Notes under the pieces: generated by a model
Databases searched by the model: none
Told to the model about the DNA's origin: nothing
What the model saw: only the letters and a program-made list of their open reading frames with translations
Position numbers and translations under genes: made by a program
In this document: one piece after another, positions 3,669 to 42,441 of the stretch
Layout: each line of letters begins with the position of its first letter
Numbering within the stretch: the stretch's first letter is position 1
DNA from: Chloroflexota bacterium
Lineage (GTDB): Bacteria > Chloroflexota > Anaerolineae > B4-G1 > SLSP01
Direction: 5' to 3'
Assembly (NCBI GenBank): GCA_036845725.1
Contig: DAIUDK010000001.1
Coordinates: forward strand, 22,522-86,521
DNA length: 64,000 nt

Positions 3669-3690
3669 TCCTTTAGATTCAAGACTACAA

Positions 3691-3770
3691 AGGTCTCAGC
3701 ACGCACTGGCACTACGCAAGATAGAGCTTGGCACAGATAAATGCGCGACAAAACACGTCGTAAGACTTTT
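3691..3770. repeat. Pair of near-identical 15-bp palindromic sites (agactacaaaggtct / agacttttgtagtct) 50 bp apart in the Wzz to BY-kinase spacer
   Basis: The second site is the reverse complement of the first with one mismatch. Each is an AGACT-N5-AGTCT palindrome. Confidence 0.4.
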
Positions 3771-3794
3771 GTAGTCTGTAACCAAAATTCTTTG

Positions 3795-4852: not shown

Positions 4853-4880
4853 CGAATTTCGCCGGGCGAATTTCGCCCAC
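4853..4880. repeat. Two tandem palindromes GRCGAATTTCGYC (gacgaatttcgcc + gggcgaatttcgccc)
   Basis: Both are perfect or near-perfect 13-15 bp palindromes. They sit in the spacer between the GT-C-like membrane protein gene and the zinc-ribbon gene. Confidence 0.45.
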
Positions 4881-6804: not shown

Positions 6805-7947
6805 CTATACCTGTCTACCGTCTGCCTCTTCCCCCGCCGTGCGGATATCCGCCTCTTGCGCCTCGATGCTTTCAACGAGTTTGAACTGGACAAGCGCCCG
6901 TGTGAGGTTGTGGCACGCGCGCTTTATCTTGTAGTAAACATTGCCTTCCAAATAGTCGGTGAAGAAGCGCAACGCCTGTTCCAGCGCGAGAAGGCGCACC
7001 GCGGCGTACAGGTATGTATAATCATCCACAGTATAGAACCCGTGCACGAGCGGCAAGTAGCCTTGCAAAATCGCCCGGCACAAGTCCATGTCGAAATATA
7101 CAGCGTCGATGTCCTCCGTCTCCTCGCCCAACGGATTACATCCGGAGCGCAGGCAATCGCCGATGTCGTATTGGACAAGCCCCGGCTTGATCGTGTCCAG
7201 GTCGATAAGGCCCACGGCCTGCCCGGTGACGTCATCAATCATCACGTTATCCACTTTGGGATCGCCGTGGGTCAGGCGCAGACGCAGCCTGCCCCGCGCC
7301 TGTGCGTCTTCCAACACGGGGATGATGTCCCGCCGCGCCGCGACAAAGCGCAGGCCGTATTCCACCTCTGGCGACCGGGCGAAGTCACCGCGCTCCACCA
7401 CCGCATCGTGGTACGCCAGATAGCGCGACGTGACATGATAGCCCGCGAGCGTGTCGTACAACCGTCCGGCGTCCAGATCGCTGATAAGGCTGTGGAAACG
7501 TCCCAGCGCATAGCCGACCTCGTGAGCATGGTATGCGTCCCGTATTTTGGGATACGTTCGCGCGCCCTCGATGAAGGTAAGCGCGCGCCAGAATCCGCCC
7601 TCCGTATCGAGCGCGTAATCGCGCCCATCCTGGGCTGAGACGATCTGCGGCGTCTCCCAACGACGTCCTGCCTTCGCCGTCTGCGGCAGCTCACCTTCCA
7701 CCACCATCCGTGCCGCCACATGCTCGCCGTACACGCGGATGTTGGACATAATCCATTCAGGTTGTTTGAACACCCGCCGGTTGATTTGCTGCAAGACGAA
7801 CCGCCGCCCCGATGCCGTTGTCACCAGATACGTGTCGTTGATGTTGCCCGCGCCGTATTCGCGGACGTCCGCAAGGGCGTCGGCGGGCAGGATGAAGTGG
7901 GCAGCCAGGGTAGAGATGTTTTCTTTGTTCGCCGTATCCGTTATCAT
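6805..7947 (-). CDS. Phosphotransferase-family kinase (APH/ChoK-like fold)
   Basis: Catalytic-loop motif LTHGDPKVDNVMIDD (HGD-x4-N) and downstream IDLDT (DxD) match the aminoglycoside phosphotransferase / sugar-kinase fold. The start is uncertain: ATG at 7947, or TTG at 8040. Confidence 0.65.
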   Translation of the reverse strand: MITDTANKENISTLAAHFILPADALADVREYGAGNINDTYLVTTASGRRFVLQQINRRVFKQPEWIMSNIRVYGEHVAARMVVEGELPQTAKAGRRWETPQIVSAQDGRDYALDTEGGFWRALTFIEGARTYPKIRDAYHAHEVGYALGRFHSLISDLDAGRLYDTLAGYHVTSRYLAYHDAVVERGDFARSPEVEYGLRFVAARRDIIPVLEDAQARGRLRLRLTHGDPKVDNVMIDDVTGQAVGLIDLDTIKPGLVQYDIGDCLRSGCNPLGEETEDIDAVYFDMDLCRAILQGYLPLVHGFYTVDDYTYLYAAVRLLALEQALRFFTDYLEGNVYYKIKRACHNLTRALVQFKLVESIEAQEADIRTAGEEADGRQV

Positions 7948-26083: not shown

Positions 26084-26494
26084 ATGCCGATTTACGAATA
26101 CCGCTGCCAGAAGTGCCGCCGCCGGTTCTCGGTATTTTGGCGCTCTTTTTCCGCCATCGACGAGAGCACGGTGACGTGCAAGTACTGCCACGGCGCAGAA
26201 GTGCGCCGCCTGGTCTCGCGCGTGCGCGTCGTGCGCTCAGAAGACAGCCGGATGGAAGATATGGCCGATCCGAGCGCCTGGGGTGACTTCGACGAGAACG
26301 ACCCCAAGAGCATGGGGCGCTTCATGCGCAAAATGGTCAACGAGATGGGCGACGAAGCTGGGGACCTCGGTTCGGAATTCGACGAGGTCATTGATCGCTT
26401 AGAGGCCGGACAGGACCCGGAGCAGATCGAAAAAGAGATTCCCGATCTGGCCGGAGATGCCGGACCGATGGGCGGGGACATGGACTTCGGTTAA
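26084..26494 (+). CDS. FmdB-family zinc-ribbon regulatory protein with a long acidic C-terminal tail
   Basis: MPIYEYRCQKCRRRFSV...CKYCHG matches the CxxC-x-CxxC FmdB signature. RBS AAAGGAGAGAAAG. Confidence 0.7.
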   Translation: MPIYEYRCQKCRRRFSVFWRSFSAIDESTVTCKYCHGAEVRRLVSRVRVVRSEDSRMEDMADPSAWGDFDENDPKSMGRFMRKMVNEMGDEAGDLGSEFDEVIDRLEAGQDPEQIEKEIPDLAGDAGPMGGDMDFG

Positions 26495-26500
26495 AAACTT

Positions 26501-26697
26501 AACCACGAATCCCCACGAATATTCACCAATTTTCTCCGTCTGTGCAGATTTGTGATAGTCAAAAGTTCATGAATTGTACACGGATTTGATGGATTTTTGG
26601 ATTTTTAAGGAAAAAATCCGCATTTTGCAGTGTGCATCCGTGTACCAGAACGGCAAAATGATCTCGATTAGTACACTATTCGTGTAGACTCGTGGTT
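26501..26697. repeat. MITE/REP-like intergenic element with 20-bp imperfect terminal inverted repeats (AACCACGAATCCCCACGAAT ... ATTCGTGTAGACTCGTGGTT) and nested internal palindromes
   Basis: About 197 bp with no coding capacity. Nested inverted repeats are gtacacggat/atccgtgtac (26576-85 and 26636-45) and ggattttt/aaaaatcc (26599-26619). A tandem ggattttt repeat is present. Confidence 0.45.
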
Positions 26698-26714
26698 TCT
26701 TTCTAGGAGGGCGT

Positions 26715-27533
26715 ATGAACGGACAGGACACTTCGCTAAAAGGGCGTTGGGCGTTGATTTTGGGCGCCTCGAGCGGATTCGGGGCGGCGACGGCGCGGGC
26801 GGTGGCGCAGGCCGGGATGCACGTCTTTGGCGTCCACCTGGACCCCCGCCGTAGCATCGACCAGGCCGAGGCCGTCATCGCCGACGTGGAAGCCGCCGGC
26901 AGCCGAGCCGTCTTCTTCAACACGAACGCCGCCGATGCGCGCCGACGTGCGCGCGTCATCGAGGCCATCGCCGCGACGTTGCGGGACGCCGAACACACCA
27001 CAATCCACCTGATGGTCCACACCCTGGCCTTCGGTAGCCTGCGCCCGTACATCACCGAGTCGCCGGAGAACGCGACCAGCGAGGAACAGATGGATATGAC
27101 GCTGCGCGTCATGGCACACAGCCTCGTCTACTGGACGCAGGACTTGGTGCAGGCGAACCTGTTGGGAGCGGGAAGCCGTATCTATTCGATGAGCAGTATG
27201 GGAGCGCAGCGGGCCGCGCCACACTACGGGGCCGTCTCGGCGGCCAAAGCTGCCCTGGAAGCGCACACGCGCCAGTTGGCGCTCGAACTGGCCCCGCGCG
27301 GCGTCGCCGTCAACTGCCTGATGCCCGGCGTCACCGACACGCCTGCGCTGCGCGCCATCCCCGGTCATGAAAAGATCATCGAGACCGTGCTGACCCATCA
27401 TCCGGCGCGCCGGTTGACCACACCGGAAGACGTGGCGCAAGTGCTCGTGGCGCTGTCCGATCCGCGCGTCACATGGATCTCGGGGACGTCGATTCCGGTC
27501 GATGGCGGGGAGGCGGCAATCAGCATTGCCTGA
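26715..27533 (+). CDS. SDR-family oxidoreductase (FabL/FabI-like enoyl-ACP reductase type)
   Basis: Cofactor motif ILGASSGFGAATARA; catalytic Y-x3-K in YGAVSAAKAALE. RBS AGGAGGG. Confidence 0.8.
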   Translation: MNGQDTSLKGRWALILGASSGFGAATARAVAQAGMHVFGVHLDPRRSIDQAEAVIADVEAAGSRAVFFNTNAADARRRARVIEAIAATLRDAEHTTIHLMVHTLAFGSLRPYITESPENATSEEQMDMTLRVMAHSLVYWTQDLVQANLLGAGSRIYSMSSMGAQRAAPHYGAVSAAKAALEAHTRQLALELAPRGVAVNCLMPGVTDTPALRAIPGHEKIIETVLTHHPARRLTTPEDVAQVLVALSDPRVTWISGTSIPVDGGEAAISIA

Positions 27534-27537
27534 AAGT

Positions 27538-27565
27538 TTGACATTATGCCTTGGTATGATAGAAT
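27538..27565 (+). promoter_or_regulatory. Candidate promoter for the S1-like (rpsA) gene
   Basis: Perfect -35 TTGACA, a 16-nt spacer, then -10 TAGAAT. This is about 70 nt upstream of the start. Confidence 0.4.
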
Positions 27566-27634
27566 ACGGGAAATTTTAGCAGACCGTCCAAGTTGCACGT
27601 GTAACACAAGTTTGCAATACTGGGTGGAAGAGGA

Positions 27635-29343: not shown

Positions 29344-29380
29344 GTCAACGGATTGAACGGATTTAACGGATGAAACAGAT

Positions 29381-30286
29381 TTACATATGATTTCCGTGCG
29401 GCTTGCGTGCCACCAGAGCGATCCAGTCCTCACACTGCCGGCGCTCAACAACGGACAGCCCCTGCGCAGCCAGCGCCGCCGTAACCTCATCCGCCTGCTC
29501 CGCCAAAATGCCCGAGACCACCAGTGTGCCCGCACGCCGAATCCGCGTATCCAACCCTGACGATGCCATGTCAATGATGATGTGCGCGAGAATGTTCGCC
29601 ACGACCAGATCGTATGGCTCGCCGACCTCCGCCAGCGAGCCGTGCAACACTCGTATCTGATGCGCTGCATCGTTGACACGCGCGTTCCGCCGAGCGACTG
29701 CCACCGCGTTGACGTCGTTATCAACGGCAAGAATGTCCGCCGCCCCCAGTTTCGCCGCGACCAGCGCCAGGATGCCCGTACCGGTTCCCAGGTCCAACAC
29801 ACGCATCCCTGGCTGCACCAGGTCTTCCAACGCTTCGACGCACAACTGCGTTGTCGGGTGCAAACCGGTGCCGAACGCCATGCCGGGATCCATTTCTAAA
29901 AGTAGCTCACCGGCCTGCGCGGCGTATTCACGCCATGAGGGCTTGATGACTACCTGCCGGCCCAAGTGCAGCACGGGGATGCTTTCCTTCCAGCCGGACG
30001 TCCAATCCTGATCAAGGATCGGCGCAAAAATCGGCTCGGGGATGACAGGCCAGATGTGGTGCAGATGCCAGAGCGCCTCCTCCACTTTCCGACGCCGCTC
30101 GACAATGTCATCGTCTACAGCGAGATAGGCTTTGACGGTCACTTGCTGCGGTGTGGCCTCTTCGCCGGTGCCCAGATCAATGACCACACCCTGCGGCGCG
30201 TAACGACTGAACACCTCGGCGACGGCTTCCGCCGCTTCGGGGACCACTGCGACGCTAACCTCGAGCCATTCCATCTGTGCTGTCAT
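29381..30286 (-). CDS. prmA: Ribosomal protein L11 methyltransferase
   Basis: SAM-binding motif [20 protein letters not shown]; ...AVDNDVNAV...; DLVVANI. Confidence 0.85.
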
Positions 30287-33330: not shown

Positions 33331-33502
33331 TCAGAACCTATCCAAAAATTATCGCGGTTTCACACTGTCGTCAGTATGGGCGGCTAAAGCCGCTTTTCCC
33401 CCGCGCCTTTAGGCGCAAAATACTGCGTCCGGTGAATTTTCGGATAGATTCTAAGTCCGTCGTCGCAATTCGGACATTCAAAACTGTGAACATGGCATCA
33501 AA

Positions 33503-33529
33503 TTAGCACTCGGATATAGAGAGTGCTAA
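33503..33529. promoter_or_regulatory. CIRCE operator (HrcA binding site), perfect consensus TTAGCACTC-N9-GAGTGCTAA
   Basis: Sequence is ttagcactc-ggatataga-gagtgctaa. It lies about 200 nt 5' of hrcA on the minus strand, inside the hrcA/kdgK divergent intergenic region. Confidence 0.85.
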
Positions 33530-34687: not shown

Positions 34688-34693
34688 ATTAAA

Positions 34694-34766
34694 CCACGAA
34701 TCTTCACGAATTGACACTAATTTTGCTTTCTATTCGTGAAGATTCGCGTCAATTCGTGGTTAATCT
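34694..34766. repeat. Short member of the same element family: AACCACGAAT...ATTCGTGGTT termini with a perfect 15-bp inner stem
   Basis: aaccacgaat-cttcacgaat-TGACAC-loop-ATTCGTGAAGATTCG-cgtca-ATTCGTGGTT. The inner stem cgaatcttcacgaat/attcgtgaagattcg is perfect. Lies between kdgK and eda. Confidence 0.5.
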
Positions 34767-41162: not shown

Positions 41163-41707
41163 GGCGCCTCACGATAGCGGGTGATAAAATCGGGGTCGTG
41201 CACCAGCGCCCAAATCACGTCGGCGACTTCTTCGGGTGTTCGCGCTGTGGTATCCACCACGTATCCCAGGTCACCGTTGCGCGCCGCCGCTTCTTGGATA
41301 CGAACCAGTTCCACGGCGCGGTCGAGATGCCAAGCCACCTCATCGGGTGAGCGCGAAGAATCACGGAGGCGTTGTTCGATCACTTGCGCGTCGCACACCA
41401 GGCGGAAGGCGTAAATCTCATCATCCAGGTCGGCAAGTAGCGTCCGCAAGCGCGCCAGCGATTCCGGTGACTCGAAGACGTAGGGGATCACGAAGTTGTG
41501 ATAGTCGCCATGCTCGATGTGGAACGCGATAAGAACCCGCAACGTCTGATAAAGATGCTCGATACGCACCTCATCGTAGATCTCGAAGGGATGTACCCAT
41601 CCGATGTAATCGCCATCGAGGAAGACGGCGCGGTCGAATTTCGAGGTCACATGCTCGCCCGTCGTGCTCTTGCCGATGCCGCATGGGCCGTTGATAATCA
41701 CAATCAT
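41150..41707 (-). CDS. P-loop NTPase / small-molecule kinase-like protein (AAA_33 / chloramphenicol-phosphotransferase-like)
   Basis: Walker A INGPCGIGKST. SD AAGGAGG. Overlaps the GT4 gene start by 13 nt. Confidence 0.6.
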   Translation of the reverse strand: MIVIINGPCGIGKSTTGEHVTSKFDRAVFLDGDYIGWVHPFEIYDEVRIEHLYQTLRVLIAFHIEHGDYHNFVIPYVFESPESLARLRTLLADLDDEIYAFRLVCDAQVIEQRLRDSSRSPDEVAWHLDRAVELVRIQEAAARNGDLGYVVDTTARTPEEVADVIWALVHDPDFITRYREAPCAS

Positions 41708-41730: not shown

Positions 41731-41795
41731 AACCGCGAATCTCGCCAATCTACGAGAATCCCCTAAAAATTAGCGAAGATTCGCGTGATTTGCGG
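41731..41795. repeat. Related CGCGAATCT / AGATTCGCG inverted repeat overlapping the 3' end of rnhB
   Basis: cgcgaatct (41734-42) and agattcgcg (41778-86). It shares the gaagattcgcg core with the 34694 element. Confidence 0.3.
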
Positions 41796-42441
41796 TCTCA
41801 ATCTTCATATTTGTTGCCGCCACACACACCGCAACAGGACGAAAAGTCAACCGGTGCAGTGGGCAGACACCCAGGCGGACCAACGCCTCCCGATGCTGTT
41901 GCGTGCCGTAACCCTTGTGTTGCGCGAAGCCGTAGCCGGGGAAATCAATCTCCGCTACGTCCACCATCCAGCGATCCCGTGCCACTTTCGCGATGATGCT
42001 GGCTGCCGCCACCGACAGCGAACGCGCGTCGGCGTAGGGGAACGCGTCCTGCGGCAGATTCACACCGGGCAAGCGCAGCGCGTCAATCACCAGGGCTTCT
42101 GGTGAGACAGACAATGCCGCCAGCGCGCGCTGCATCGCTAATCGCGTCGCCGGGACGATGCCGAGCGCGTCGATTTCCTGCTGCTCGCCGCGCCCTACCC
42201 CTACGGCCAACGCCACGTCGAGGATGCGCGTTACCAATCGCTGACGGACCACGGATGACAACTGCTTGGAATCGCGCACACCGGCCAAAGCCGCACACAC
42301 GCCATCTCCACAAGGCAGAATCACCGCCGCGGCGACCACCGGCCCGGCCCACGCCCCGCGCCCGGCCTCATCCAGTCCGGCTACGCGTTGCATCCCGCGC
42401 GCCCAAAATCGCTCTTCCGCTTCCAGTGTAGGTAAATTCAT
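41770..42441 (-). CDS. rnhB: Ribonuclease HII
   Basis: ...[21 protein letters not shown]... with the DEAGRG catalytic motif; DSKQLS; ...HKGYG... C-terminal region. Confidence 0.85.

Follow-up and report, generated by a model that had tools for sequence, protein, structure and literature searches.

The window analyzed here is a 64,000-nucleotide (64-kb) stretch of a contig from an uncultured member of the Anaerolineae (Chloroflexota) that is common in metagenome assemblies. Within it, a 197-bp element at positions 26501–26697 lies in the spacer between a gene for an FmdB-like zinc-ribbon protein, whose stop codon is at 26494, and a gene for a short-chain dehydrogenase/reductase (SDR), whose ATG is at 26715. 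The original prediction for this DNA, made from the sequence alone, had described the element as filling the entire spacer and ending 6 nt before the Shine–Dalgarno (SD) sequence of the SDR gene. The element is present at exactly the predicted coordinates and does adjoin the SD sequence, but it takes up most of the spacer rather than all of it (197 of 220 nt), and the AGGAGG of the SDR gene lies 7 nt past its end. Two things on which the present analysis turns were missed in the prediction: the arms of the element consist of three heptamers in 10-bp phase, and longer members of the same family encode a protein, GxxExxY. The features needed for the argument are listed below; the three copies are called the 26.5-kb, 34.7-kb, and 41.7-kb copies according to their positions.

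26501–26697, no strand: whole element, 197 bp, with outer CACGAAT-type arms, an A/T-rich interior, and nested hairpins
26501–26530, plus strand: left arm, AAC-CACGAAT-CCC-CACGAAT-ATT-CACCAAT, with heptamers at 26504, 26514, and 26524 in 10-bp phase
26667–26697, minus strand: right arm, read on the minus strand as AAC-CACGAGT-CTA-CACGAAT-AGTG-TACTAAT
26576–26645, no strand: nested inner hairpin, GTACACGGAT/ATCCGTGTAC, 26576–26585 with 26636–26645, 10/10 paired
26599–26619: inner stem-loop, GGATTTTT/AAAAATCC, 26599–26606 with 26612–26619
26621–26660: inner stem-loop, CATTTTGCAGT/ACGGCAAAATG, 26621–26631 with 26650–26660, 10/11 paired
34692–34761, no strand: second, minimal copy, 70 bp, in the kdgK (PfkB)–eda spacer
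41731–41797, no strand: degenerate CGCGAAT-type copy, AACCGCGAAT-CT-CGCCAAT-CTA-CGAGAAT ... ATTAGCG-AAG-ATTCGCG-TG-ATTTGCG-GTC, with 3 + 3 phased units

The terminal inverted repeats of the 26.5-kb copy, predicted to be 20 bp long, exist but span 21 nt (26501–26521 and 26677–26697, 155 nt apart), of which 18 (86%) are complementary. On the plus strand the right arm reads ATTAGTA at 26667, ATTCGTG at 26678, and ACTCGTG at 26688, followed by GTT. Its terminus, ACTCGTGGTT, is one mismatch from the ATTCGTGGTT that had been quoted, and the claim that exactly the same termini flank the copy between kdgK and eda fails at this position. The nested internal palindromes are as predicted and correspond to the three inner hairpins listed above. 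The G+C content of the element is 39.5%, compared with 60% for the window, and the FmdB–SDR spacer folds as RNA with −59.8 kcal/mol (z = −2.96), better than all 200 shuffled sequences. The interior is unique: a comparison with 417 loci gave nothing beyond chance matches of 15 nt. The perfectly paired nested hairpin consists of phased CACGGAT-like units (CACGGATTTG-ATGGATTTT-TGGATTTTT, 26579–26606) and gives the appearance of one element, of CACGGAT type, lodged within another, of CACGAAT type. This reading draws on the existence of CACGGAT arms as a family elsewhere (loci L422, L423, and L426) and on another case of one type nested in another, in L183, where a CACGAAG-type hairpin sits within a CACAGAG-type one.

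Between kdgK and eda, a 73-bp hairpin had been predicted at 34694–34766. The copy is there, with corrected bounds and a length of 70 bp. Its arms (34692–34721 and 34732–34761) contain heptamers at 34695, 34705, and 34715 and inverted heptamers at 34732, 34742, and 34752 on either side of a 10-nt loop, and the predicted perfect 15-bp inner stem, CGAATCTTCACGAAT/ATTCGTGAAGATTCG, is present. Because the spacers between the heptamers are permuted, these arms can pair in two alternative registers. As RNA, this copy folds with −26.1 kcal/mol (z = −3.51), again better than all 200 shuffles. The degenerate 41.7-kb copy, also proposed originally as a related repeat, is indeed a relative; it precedes, by 8 nt, the SD sequence of a minus-strand gene starting at 41707, and the preceding minus-strand open reading frame (ORF) terminates within it, at 41770. 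The window holds two clear and two to three degenerate copies in 64 kb, every one of them between co-directional genes and ending 7–9 nt before the next SD sequence. At no more than one mismatch, AACCACGAAT occurs 12 times in the window versus 3.7 ± 2.0 times after shuffling, and none of 100 shuffles reached 12. CACGAAT-like heptamer pairs phased by 9–11 bp number 10 (shuffle mean 1.7, maximum 6, 50 shuffles), and all 10 fall in the 26.5-kb and 34.7-kb elements.

The common arm consists of three CACGAAT-like heptamers in 10-bp phase, with the pattern AACCACGAAT-nnA-CACGAAT-nnA-CACGAAT and with element ends closed by AACC.../...GGTT. Scanning one genome per species (596 Gb) with the pattern AACCACGAATNNNCRCGAAT gave at least 120 matches, a raw count that is uninformative because, by our own estimate, chance alone would yield about 140 in that much sequence. 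More telling is a heptamer that was not searched for. We pooled 372 distinct termini from the genome scan, 50 viral-contig stretches, and 120 metagenome stretches, all found with a pattern that fixed the first two heptamers only; in 250 of these 372, a third heptamer with at most one mismatch from CACGAAT stands at exactly +10. Conservation of this unspecified unit indicates that the family is real and extends beyond chance matches. The consensus terminus is tttAACCACGAATggACACGAATnaACACGAAT.

Among the matches listed, arms occur in metagenome-assembled genomes (MAGs) of more than 15 phyla. Verrucomicrobiota contribute the most, and Planctomycetota, Kiritimatiellota, Lentisphaerota, Hydrogenedentota, Acidobacteriota, and Chloroflexota (four MAGs) are also represented, together with several Proteobacteria, Bacteroidota, Armatimonadota, Cloacimonadota, others, and one Thermoplasmata archaeon. 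CACGAAT arms were further found in 50 viral-contig stretches and in at least 120 metagenome stretches from soil and freshwater contigs; among the matches listed, none of these metagenome stretches matched the window. A sister type, CACAGAG (TCACCACAGAG...CTCTGTGGTGA), was present in at least 120 viral-contig stretches, with pairs of 59–846 bp. Termini avoid genes: 104 of 156 lie wholly outside ORFs of at least 150 aa, though such ORFs cover 84% of the background loci. A literature search did not find the repeat sequences, and the papers matching CACGAAT were irrelevant. The heptamer-arm elements are apparently an undescribed cross-phylum family.

The conserved third heptamer also argues against reading the copies as independent terminator-like hairpins with coincidental similarity, or as a known structured RNA or riboswitch, possibilities that the original prediction had in part entertained. 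The sequences are intergenic and hairpin-forming, and a moderately T-rich tail (TTTCTTTCT) follows the 26.5-kb copy. Terminator consensus scans of both clear copies, however, found no site formed by the terminal hairpin and returned sites at about the rate of shuffled sequence: short minus-strand stems only at 26.5 kb, and at 34.7 kb a 5-pair stem in the right arm (34744–34759) followed by TTAATCTTGA, with no T run. A sigma-70 promoter scan of the same two copies found no promoter-like site. Searches against Rfam 15 at the gathering score gave no match in the window and no relevant match in 18 element-bearing loci, and a search by E-value (E < 10) of positions 26400–26800 returned noise only (E = 2–6). 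We rejected the structured-RNA identity, given also the unique interior and the conservation confined to the arms, and likewise the intrinsic-terminator identity; the probability that we attach to either is negligible.

About half of the termini have an inverted partner within 700 nt (median 114 nt), and the rest are solo. A comparison of the two arms within each of 39 complete pairs gave an identity of 92% for heptamer positions but 47% for spacer positions, against the 45% expected of independent arms. The heptamers match and the spacers do not, so what is kept is the heptamer and its helical phase rather than a continuous stem, a pattern that suggests sequence-specific recognition by a protein. 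The orientation of solo arms relative to neighboring genes shows no more than a weak bias in a crude ORF-based test.

Some phage-like contigs in IMG/VR (L288, L292, and L252/L266) carry 5–9 CACGAAT arms in 6–22 kb. Most of these arms are solo or back-to-back and mark the borders of genes, a Fic-family gene among them, in the manner of cassette-like punctuation. At positions 7852–7973 of L117, tandem CACGAAT/TACGAAT units with a 30-bp super-period are translated as MDTNGHEWIRMDTNGYEWIR..., from which it follows that heptamer arrays can grow well past three units.

We took the syntenic region from nine relatives of the window organism and compared the FmdB–SDR spacer. In the following lines, percentages give the SDR protein identity to the window.

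Window, 100%: CACGAAT element, 197 bp
L127, 93%: empty, TAA directly followed by ATG
L418, 92%: CACAGAG hairpin
L419, 92%: CACAGAG hairpin
L125, 90%: CACAGAG hairpin, AAACCACAGAGACACAGAAAACACAGAG...CTCTGTGACCTCCGTGTCTCTGTGGTTT
L126, 86%: 111 nt, no arms
L420, 85%: 8 nt
L422, 83%: CACGGAT hairpin
L128, 78%: 13 nt

On its right side, the site has homologous flanking sequence (GTGGTTTCTTTCTAGGAGGG and variants) in the window, L418, and L125, indicating that one type replaced another inside the same AACC...GGTT frame; the difference between the empty site of L127 and the window exceeds a clean insertion. The kdgK–eda spacer is similarly variable, being of CACGAAT type in the window and of CACAGAG type in L125 and L126. 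In L126 (18764–19026), a tandem duplication of ~170 bp runs from the last bases of kdgK through the CACAGAG hairpin into the first ~90 nt of eda, which shows that the element-bearing spacer is structurally unstable. In L127 (15540–15640), an ACGAAT-type element of ~97 nt lies within the 3′ end of hrcA; the corresponding place in the window is a 26-nt spacer. In L127 the repeat-encoded ...EFVTNERMDA* takes the place of the C-terminal residues of HrcA, and the old tail and stop codon can still be recognized downstream. Insertion polymorphism between related genomes is accordingly seen at two sites, FmdB–SDR (nine relatives) and the hrcA 3′ end (L127 alone). Each genome fragment holds one type: CACGAAT-like in the window and L127; CACAGAG in L418, L419, L125, L126, and L420; and CACGGAT in L422.

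Gain, loss, and lineage typing at orthologous sites mark the elements as a dispersed, mobile family, as in repetitive extragenic palindromic sequences (REPs). The original prediction had proposed a family of small dispersed palindromic elements, possibly mobile and similar to REPs or miniature inverted-repeat transposable elements (MITEs), and had named invariance between related strains as evidence against it. Comparison of the orthologous loci instead reveals polymorphism in presence, absence, and type, and the predicted family proves to be very large and cross-phylum. We are highly confident that the 26.5-kb, 34.7-kb, and degenerate 41.7-kb copies are dispersed, turnover-prone repeats of the heptamer-arm family.

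The same comparison bears on a primary role in RNA, in which each copy would act as an intercistronic hairpin for upstream mRNA stability, RNase III-like processing, or tuning of downstream translation, as for some copies of REPs and bacterial interspersed mosaic elements; the resemblance of the copies to one another would, on this view, be a secondary matter. The placement of the window copies between co-directional genes, 7–9 nt before an SD sequence, is consistent with this idea, and so is the folding of their spacers beyond all 200 shuffles (z = −3.0 and −3.5). It is harder to reconcile with the element-free spacers of 0, 8, and 13 nt that close relatives have at the same site, with arm spacers that are complementary no more often than by chance while the heptamers are kept, and with the solo arms (half of the total), which are unable to form a hairpin. 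The same heptamers, moreover, occur across phyla upstream, downstream, and within genes, and no Rfam family corresponds to them. We regard a primary RNA role as improbable.

Some CACGAAT-type pairs enclose a single ORF, and this ORF encodes GxxExxY (TIGR04256, E = 8e-35; PF13366, PDDEXK_3, E = 2e-31). The complete form measures ~430 bp and comprises two arms plus one gene for a GxxExxY protein of ~125 aa with a PD-(D/E)XK nuclease fold (PF13366). The gene begins (GGAGG)AACCACGA-ATG-GAC-ACG-AAT-...; the ATG lies in the arm, and the first seven residues (MDTNxHE) are therefore repeat sequence. At the other end, the first inverted heptamer follows directly on the stop codon (...L*-(TGA)ATTCGTG...ATTCGTGGTT). 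Of the 124 distinct paired elements, 107 fall below 350 bp and 15 measure 350–520 bp, and GxxExxY is encoded in 12 of these 15. Three shorter elements hold internally deleted remnants of the gene, which cover hidden Markov model (HMM) positions 4–61 plus 102–130, 4–37 plus 96–130, and 111–131. Such remnants form the series expected if the gene-less hairpins come from the coding element by internal deletion. A CACGAAT-flanked GxxExxY gene is also found in an Anaerolineales MAG (L058), possibly of a species other than that of the window.

The repeat is likewise visible in GxxExxY proteins from databases. An M-x-T/A-N start occurs in 81 of the 120 nearest homologues and a two-heptamer signature in 53 of the 120, as retrieved with N-terminally trimmed queries. 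Representatives at 50% identity (150 sequences) include the N termini MNANERE (CGCGAAT) and MDTDGHG (CACGGAT), as well as C-terminal tails such as FVSIRG and IRVHSW, where translation has run on into the inverted arm. A second subfamily, the homologues of P0273, starts with MNTDGHG; its TD signature is present in 68 of 119 sequences versus 0 of 120 in the first set. The DNA of this subfamily in L423 and L426 has CACGGAT arms on both sides (AACCACGG-ATG-AACACGGATGGACACGGAT ... stop-ATCCGTGnnnATCCGTGnnnATCCGTGGTT), and arm type thus co-varies with nuclease subfamily.

The GxxExxY profile finds matches in over 17,000 clusters (50% identity). From residue 5 on, P0180 is identical to P0173 (a Desulfobacter postgatei record versus a Mangrovibacterium (Bacteroidota) MAG), with P0180 having a 4-residue N-terminal extension, and a Thermococci archaeon encodes a GxxExxY protein that is 77% identical. 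These similarities across phyla point to horizontal transfer; in the case of P0180 and P0173, either such a transfer took place very recently or the identity is an artefact of binning or contamination. The one survey found to list the GxxExxY family describes it as of unknown function, with multiple transfers between divisions (PMC3424549). Other papers touch on GxxExxY and PDDEXK_3 briefly, as being of unknown function.

These gene-bearing forms are also relevant to the possibility that the arms are operator arrays, bound on one helical face by a regulator or nucleoid-associated protein, and that they serve host regulation rather than being mobile DNA. A phase of exactly 10 bp, conserved heptamers separated by free spacers, and a location just upstream of gene starts would all suit such arrays. 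Several findings do not: the genes that follow the arms have nothing in common (an SDR gene, eda, and a small minus-strand gene here, and countless others in further phyla), relatives with 83–93% SDR identity may have the site, lack it, or carry another type there, and copies lie within the 3′ end of hrcA. The deletion series, furthermore, joins gene-bearing to short copies, and the spread covers multiple phyla, with GxxExxY identical from residue 5 in the Desulfobacter postgatei record and the Mangrovibacterium MAG. Operator arrays are very unlikely to be the explanation. Protein binding by the arms, which the original prediction had also suggested, is possible as part of the mechanism of a mobile element but not as a regulon.

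A further alternative accepts that the elements are mobile but has them moved by other means, such as a REP-associated tyrosine transposase (RAYT)/IS200-like Y1 or other transposase, or the host's own replication and recombination at hairpins. GxxExxY would then be a passenger, perhaps a selfish cassette of the addiction or defence type. Most copies are indeed gene-less (107 of 124 pairs below 350 bp), no GxxExxY occurs in the CACAGAG family or viral-contig copies examined or near the window copies, and some longer arm-bounded segments carry other ORFs. On the other side, GxxExxY is the sole recurrent ORF between CACGAAT-type arms, at 12 of 15 in the 350–520 bp class, as judged from motif-selected loci with no agnostic neighbor screen. 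The gene also fits the element exactly, starting in one arm and stopping against the other, and the nuclease subfamily co-varies with arm type. Mobilization by other means seems to us rather unlikely.

Our best reading is that the 197-bp element is a non-autonomous derivative, similar to MITEs or to REP doublets forming hairpins (REPINs), of a minimal nuclease-encoding element. Taken as a whole, the statement that the window copies are gene-less, non-autonomous members of a cross-phylum family that has a GxxExxY-coding complete form and is mobilized by GxxExxY is one that we hold to be probable, with some reserve. For the single step of naming GxxExxY as the mobilizing enzyme, our judgment is nearly balanced and leans slightly to the negative.

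A possible mechanism would involve recognition by the GxxExxY nuclease of the three heptamers on one face of B-DNA, or of an extruded hairpin, followed by cutting at the AACC/GGTT element boundaries. Such cutting could propagate or maintain the nuclease's own cassette and, in trans, its internally deleted gene-less derivatives, in parallel to the role of RAYTs for REPs and REPINs. Copies, as observed here, occupy transcribed intergenic spacers from the stop codon to the next SD sequence, and among closely related lineages they are gained, lost, and swapped for another heptamer type. Insertion may prefer stop-to-SD spacers or existing hairpins, and a preference for existing hairpins would explain both nesting and same-site replacement. 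Once in place, copies would be transcribed along with their neighbors and form a hairpin in the intercistronic RNA; whatever this did to SDR gene expression would be at most secondary, a side effect rather than the raison d'être of the element.

Several observations weigh against this account. No GxxExxY gene is present in the 64-kb window or in ~130 kb of the relatives' loci, and the window copies hold no trace of the ORF; for the interior of the 26.5-kb copy, read as a decayed GxxExxY gene, the best HMM E-value is 0.16. In viral contigs, GxxExxY was found in none of 120 loci of the equally abundant CACAGAG family and in none of 50 CACGAAT loci. The large share of solo arms is a difficulty as well. 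Target-site duplications, which the original prediction had proposed to look for, did not appear consistently: the flanks of 19 complete pairs contain no recurrent direct repeat, and where flanks match they lengthen the palindrome (TT-AACC...GGTT-AA). The in-place swap of heptamer types is unexplained by simple insertion, the match of GxxExxY to a nuclease fold is generic, and GxxExxY could be cargo rather than engine.

A bolder version can be put forward only tentatively. GxxExxY proteins might serve as site-specific nucleases for minimal autonomous mobile elements of a new class, each ~430 bp long, with two tri-heptamer arms and a 125-aa PD-(D/E)XK gene, spread over bacterial and archaeal phyla and phage. 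The class would shed lineage-typed, gene-less hairpins and so form a PD-(D/E)XK counterpart to RAYT–REPIN systems; its elements would replace one another in situ by a hairpin-targeted or gene-conversion-like process. The window element would be one of these hairpins and would contain another type nested within it.

Parts of this architecture are shared with known systems. Like REP/REPIN–RAYT systems, the present elements are short extragenic palindromes that occur in hundreds of copies across genomes, often as inverted pairs that act as hairpin-forming units, and they lack a target-site duplication. They lie between co-directional or convergent genes and have a lineage-specific sequence type, and one small protein gene is flanked by inverted repeats in a few gene-bearing copies, the majority being gene-less. 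In contrast, a REP is a single imperfect palindrome of 20–40 nt with a 5′ GTAG, whereas the arms described here contain three 10-bp-phased heptamers and their consensus, tttAACCACGAATggACACGAATnaACACGAAT, is without GTAG. The gene between the arms is that of GxxExxY/PF13366 (PD-(D/E)XK, ~125 aa) rather than of an IS200/IS605-type Y1 transposase, the loci having been assigned with no Y1-transposase profile search. REPIN–RAYT systems are, according to their authors, mostly vertically inherited (PMC3116915, PMC3337134, PMC5581495, PMC3686654), whereas one heptamer type occurs here across phyla with signs of horizontal transfer. A further difference is that the start codon and the first seven codons of the gene consist of the repeat.

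MITEs derived from insertion sequence elements, such as Correia/NEMIS of Neisseria, are ~50–300 bp long, carry terminal inverted repeats, lie in intergenic regions, are co-transcribed, and show insertion polymorphism between strains. The window copies share with MITEs their terminal inverted repeats, small size, and lack of coding capacity, and the family apparently shares the way in which gene-less forms arise, through loss of internal sequence from a longer coding element whose ends they keep. Both the longer form and deletion intermediates exist, but the sole gene encodes a PD-(D/E)XK protein; there is no DDE transposase and no consistent target-site duplication, the full length is just ~430 bp, and the ends are multi-site arrays. 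The ends of Mu and Tn7 each contain about three short transposase-binding sites and are inverted relative to each other, as are the arms with their three motif copies. Their sites are ~20 bp long and irregularly spaced, however, and belong to multi-gene, kilobase-sized elements with DDE transposases.

Three further comparisons concern size, translation, and heptamer composition. The intervening sequence in Coxiella 23S rRNA is 428 nt long and holds a small ORF for S23p, a four-helix-bundle protein (PMC4990558). It resembles the complete form as a selfish unit of ~430 nt with one ORF of ~120 aa of unknown function, and differs in its protein family, its location within rRNA, and the lack of any reported phased heptamers. 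Rickettsia palindromic elements (Ogata et al., 2000) are said to be small palindromes that sometimes lie inside coding sequence and are translated, as the repeat is here in the HrcA tail of L127 (...TNERMDA*) and in the N termini and C-terminal tails of GxxExxY. They reportedly have an unrelated sequence and are confined to one genus, and we know of no nuclease gene associated with them. Cyanobacterial short tandemly repeated repetitive (STRR) heptamers and small dispersed repeats (Mazel et al., 1990; Elhai et al., 2008) are reportedly similar in being heptamer-based, in repeat-in-repeat nesting, and in having differing types at orthologous positions. The STRR units, by contrast, are said to be contiguous with a period of 7 rather than phased by 10 bp, and to lack inverted arms closed by AACC/GGTT; to our knowledge, no gene is associated with them. 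Because the GTAG palindrome and Y1 transposase of REPs were not found, nor a target-site duplication or DDE parent, we assign no named family. In kind, the elements are palindromic non-autonomous repeats with a single-gene partner and are not members of any named family.

If the proposed account is true, it would give the huge TIGR04256/PF13366 family a testable function, namely recognition and cleavage of phased-heptamer arms. It would also add a second, mechanistically distinct gene/repeat relation of the REPIN–RAYT kind, common to many phyla rather than inherited within one, and the unit of ~430 bp would perhaps be the smallest protein-coding mobile unit of prokaryotes. Oddities of annotation (MDTNxHE and MNTDGHG starts, FVSIRG and IRVHSW tails, and the end of HrcA in L127) would be explained as translated repeat. 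For the genome of the window, the FmdB–SDR and kdgK–eda spacers prove to be hot spots of repeat turnover and not conserved regulatory RNA.

Two weaker candidates in the window complete the list of possible relatives.

29345–29390, plus strand: solo array of phased AACGGAT units, TCAACGGAT-TGAACGGAT-TTAACGGAT-GAAACAGAT
2125–2173, no strand: weak possible relative, AACCACGAAG...TTCGTGTTTTGGTGGTT, with a single heptamer in each arm and an SD sequence 8 nt further on

The solo array lies immediately 3′ of the infA terminator hairpin without an inverted partner and is possibly a half-element. The repeat at 2125–2173 had been grouped with the element from the outset, but since it has just one heptamer per arm, its membership in the family is unproven. 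The palindromes at 4853–4880, for which kinship had also been claimed, were rejected as members: they have CGAAT alone in common with the arms and no phased heptamers. The palindrome G(A/G)CGAATTTCGCC stands there twice in tandem upstream of a gene; the pair looks like an operator for a dimeric regulator and is unrelated to the heptamer-arm family. The longest inverted repeat of the window, at 3672–3787 (TTTAGATTCAAGACTACAAAGGTC...), has 32-nt arms that are 75% complementary and 52 nt apart, and is likewise unrelated to the heptamers.

Another kind of tiny hairpin repeat is found at 33378–33412 (GGCGGCTAAAGCCGC and GCGCCTTTAGGCGC; in relatives, GCCGCTAAAGCGGC). It recurs in variable Anaerolineae spacers, between hrcA and kdgK in L125 and between the SDR and S1 genes in L126, and may be another dispersed repeat family. 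The hrcA-grpE-dnaJ operon is preceded, at 33503–33529, by a canonical CIRCE operator, TTAGCACTC-N9-GAGTGCTAA, which is kept in L125, L126, and L127. The spacer between the SDR gene and rpsA (S1), at 27538–27627, contains a near-consensus promoter, TTGACA-N-TATGATAGAAT, and then a leader with a conserved stem, CCAAGTTGCA...TTGCAATACTGGGTGG, that continues into the SD sequence and start codon. This leader may be an rpsA autoregulatory leader. In L418 the spacer is different, with only the promoter similar; in eight of nine relatives, down to 78% SDR identity, it is almost identical while the neighboring spacers turn over.

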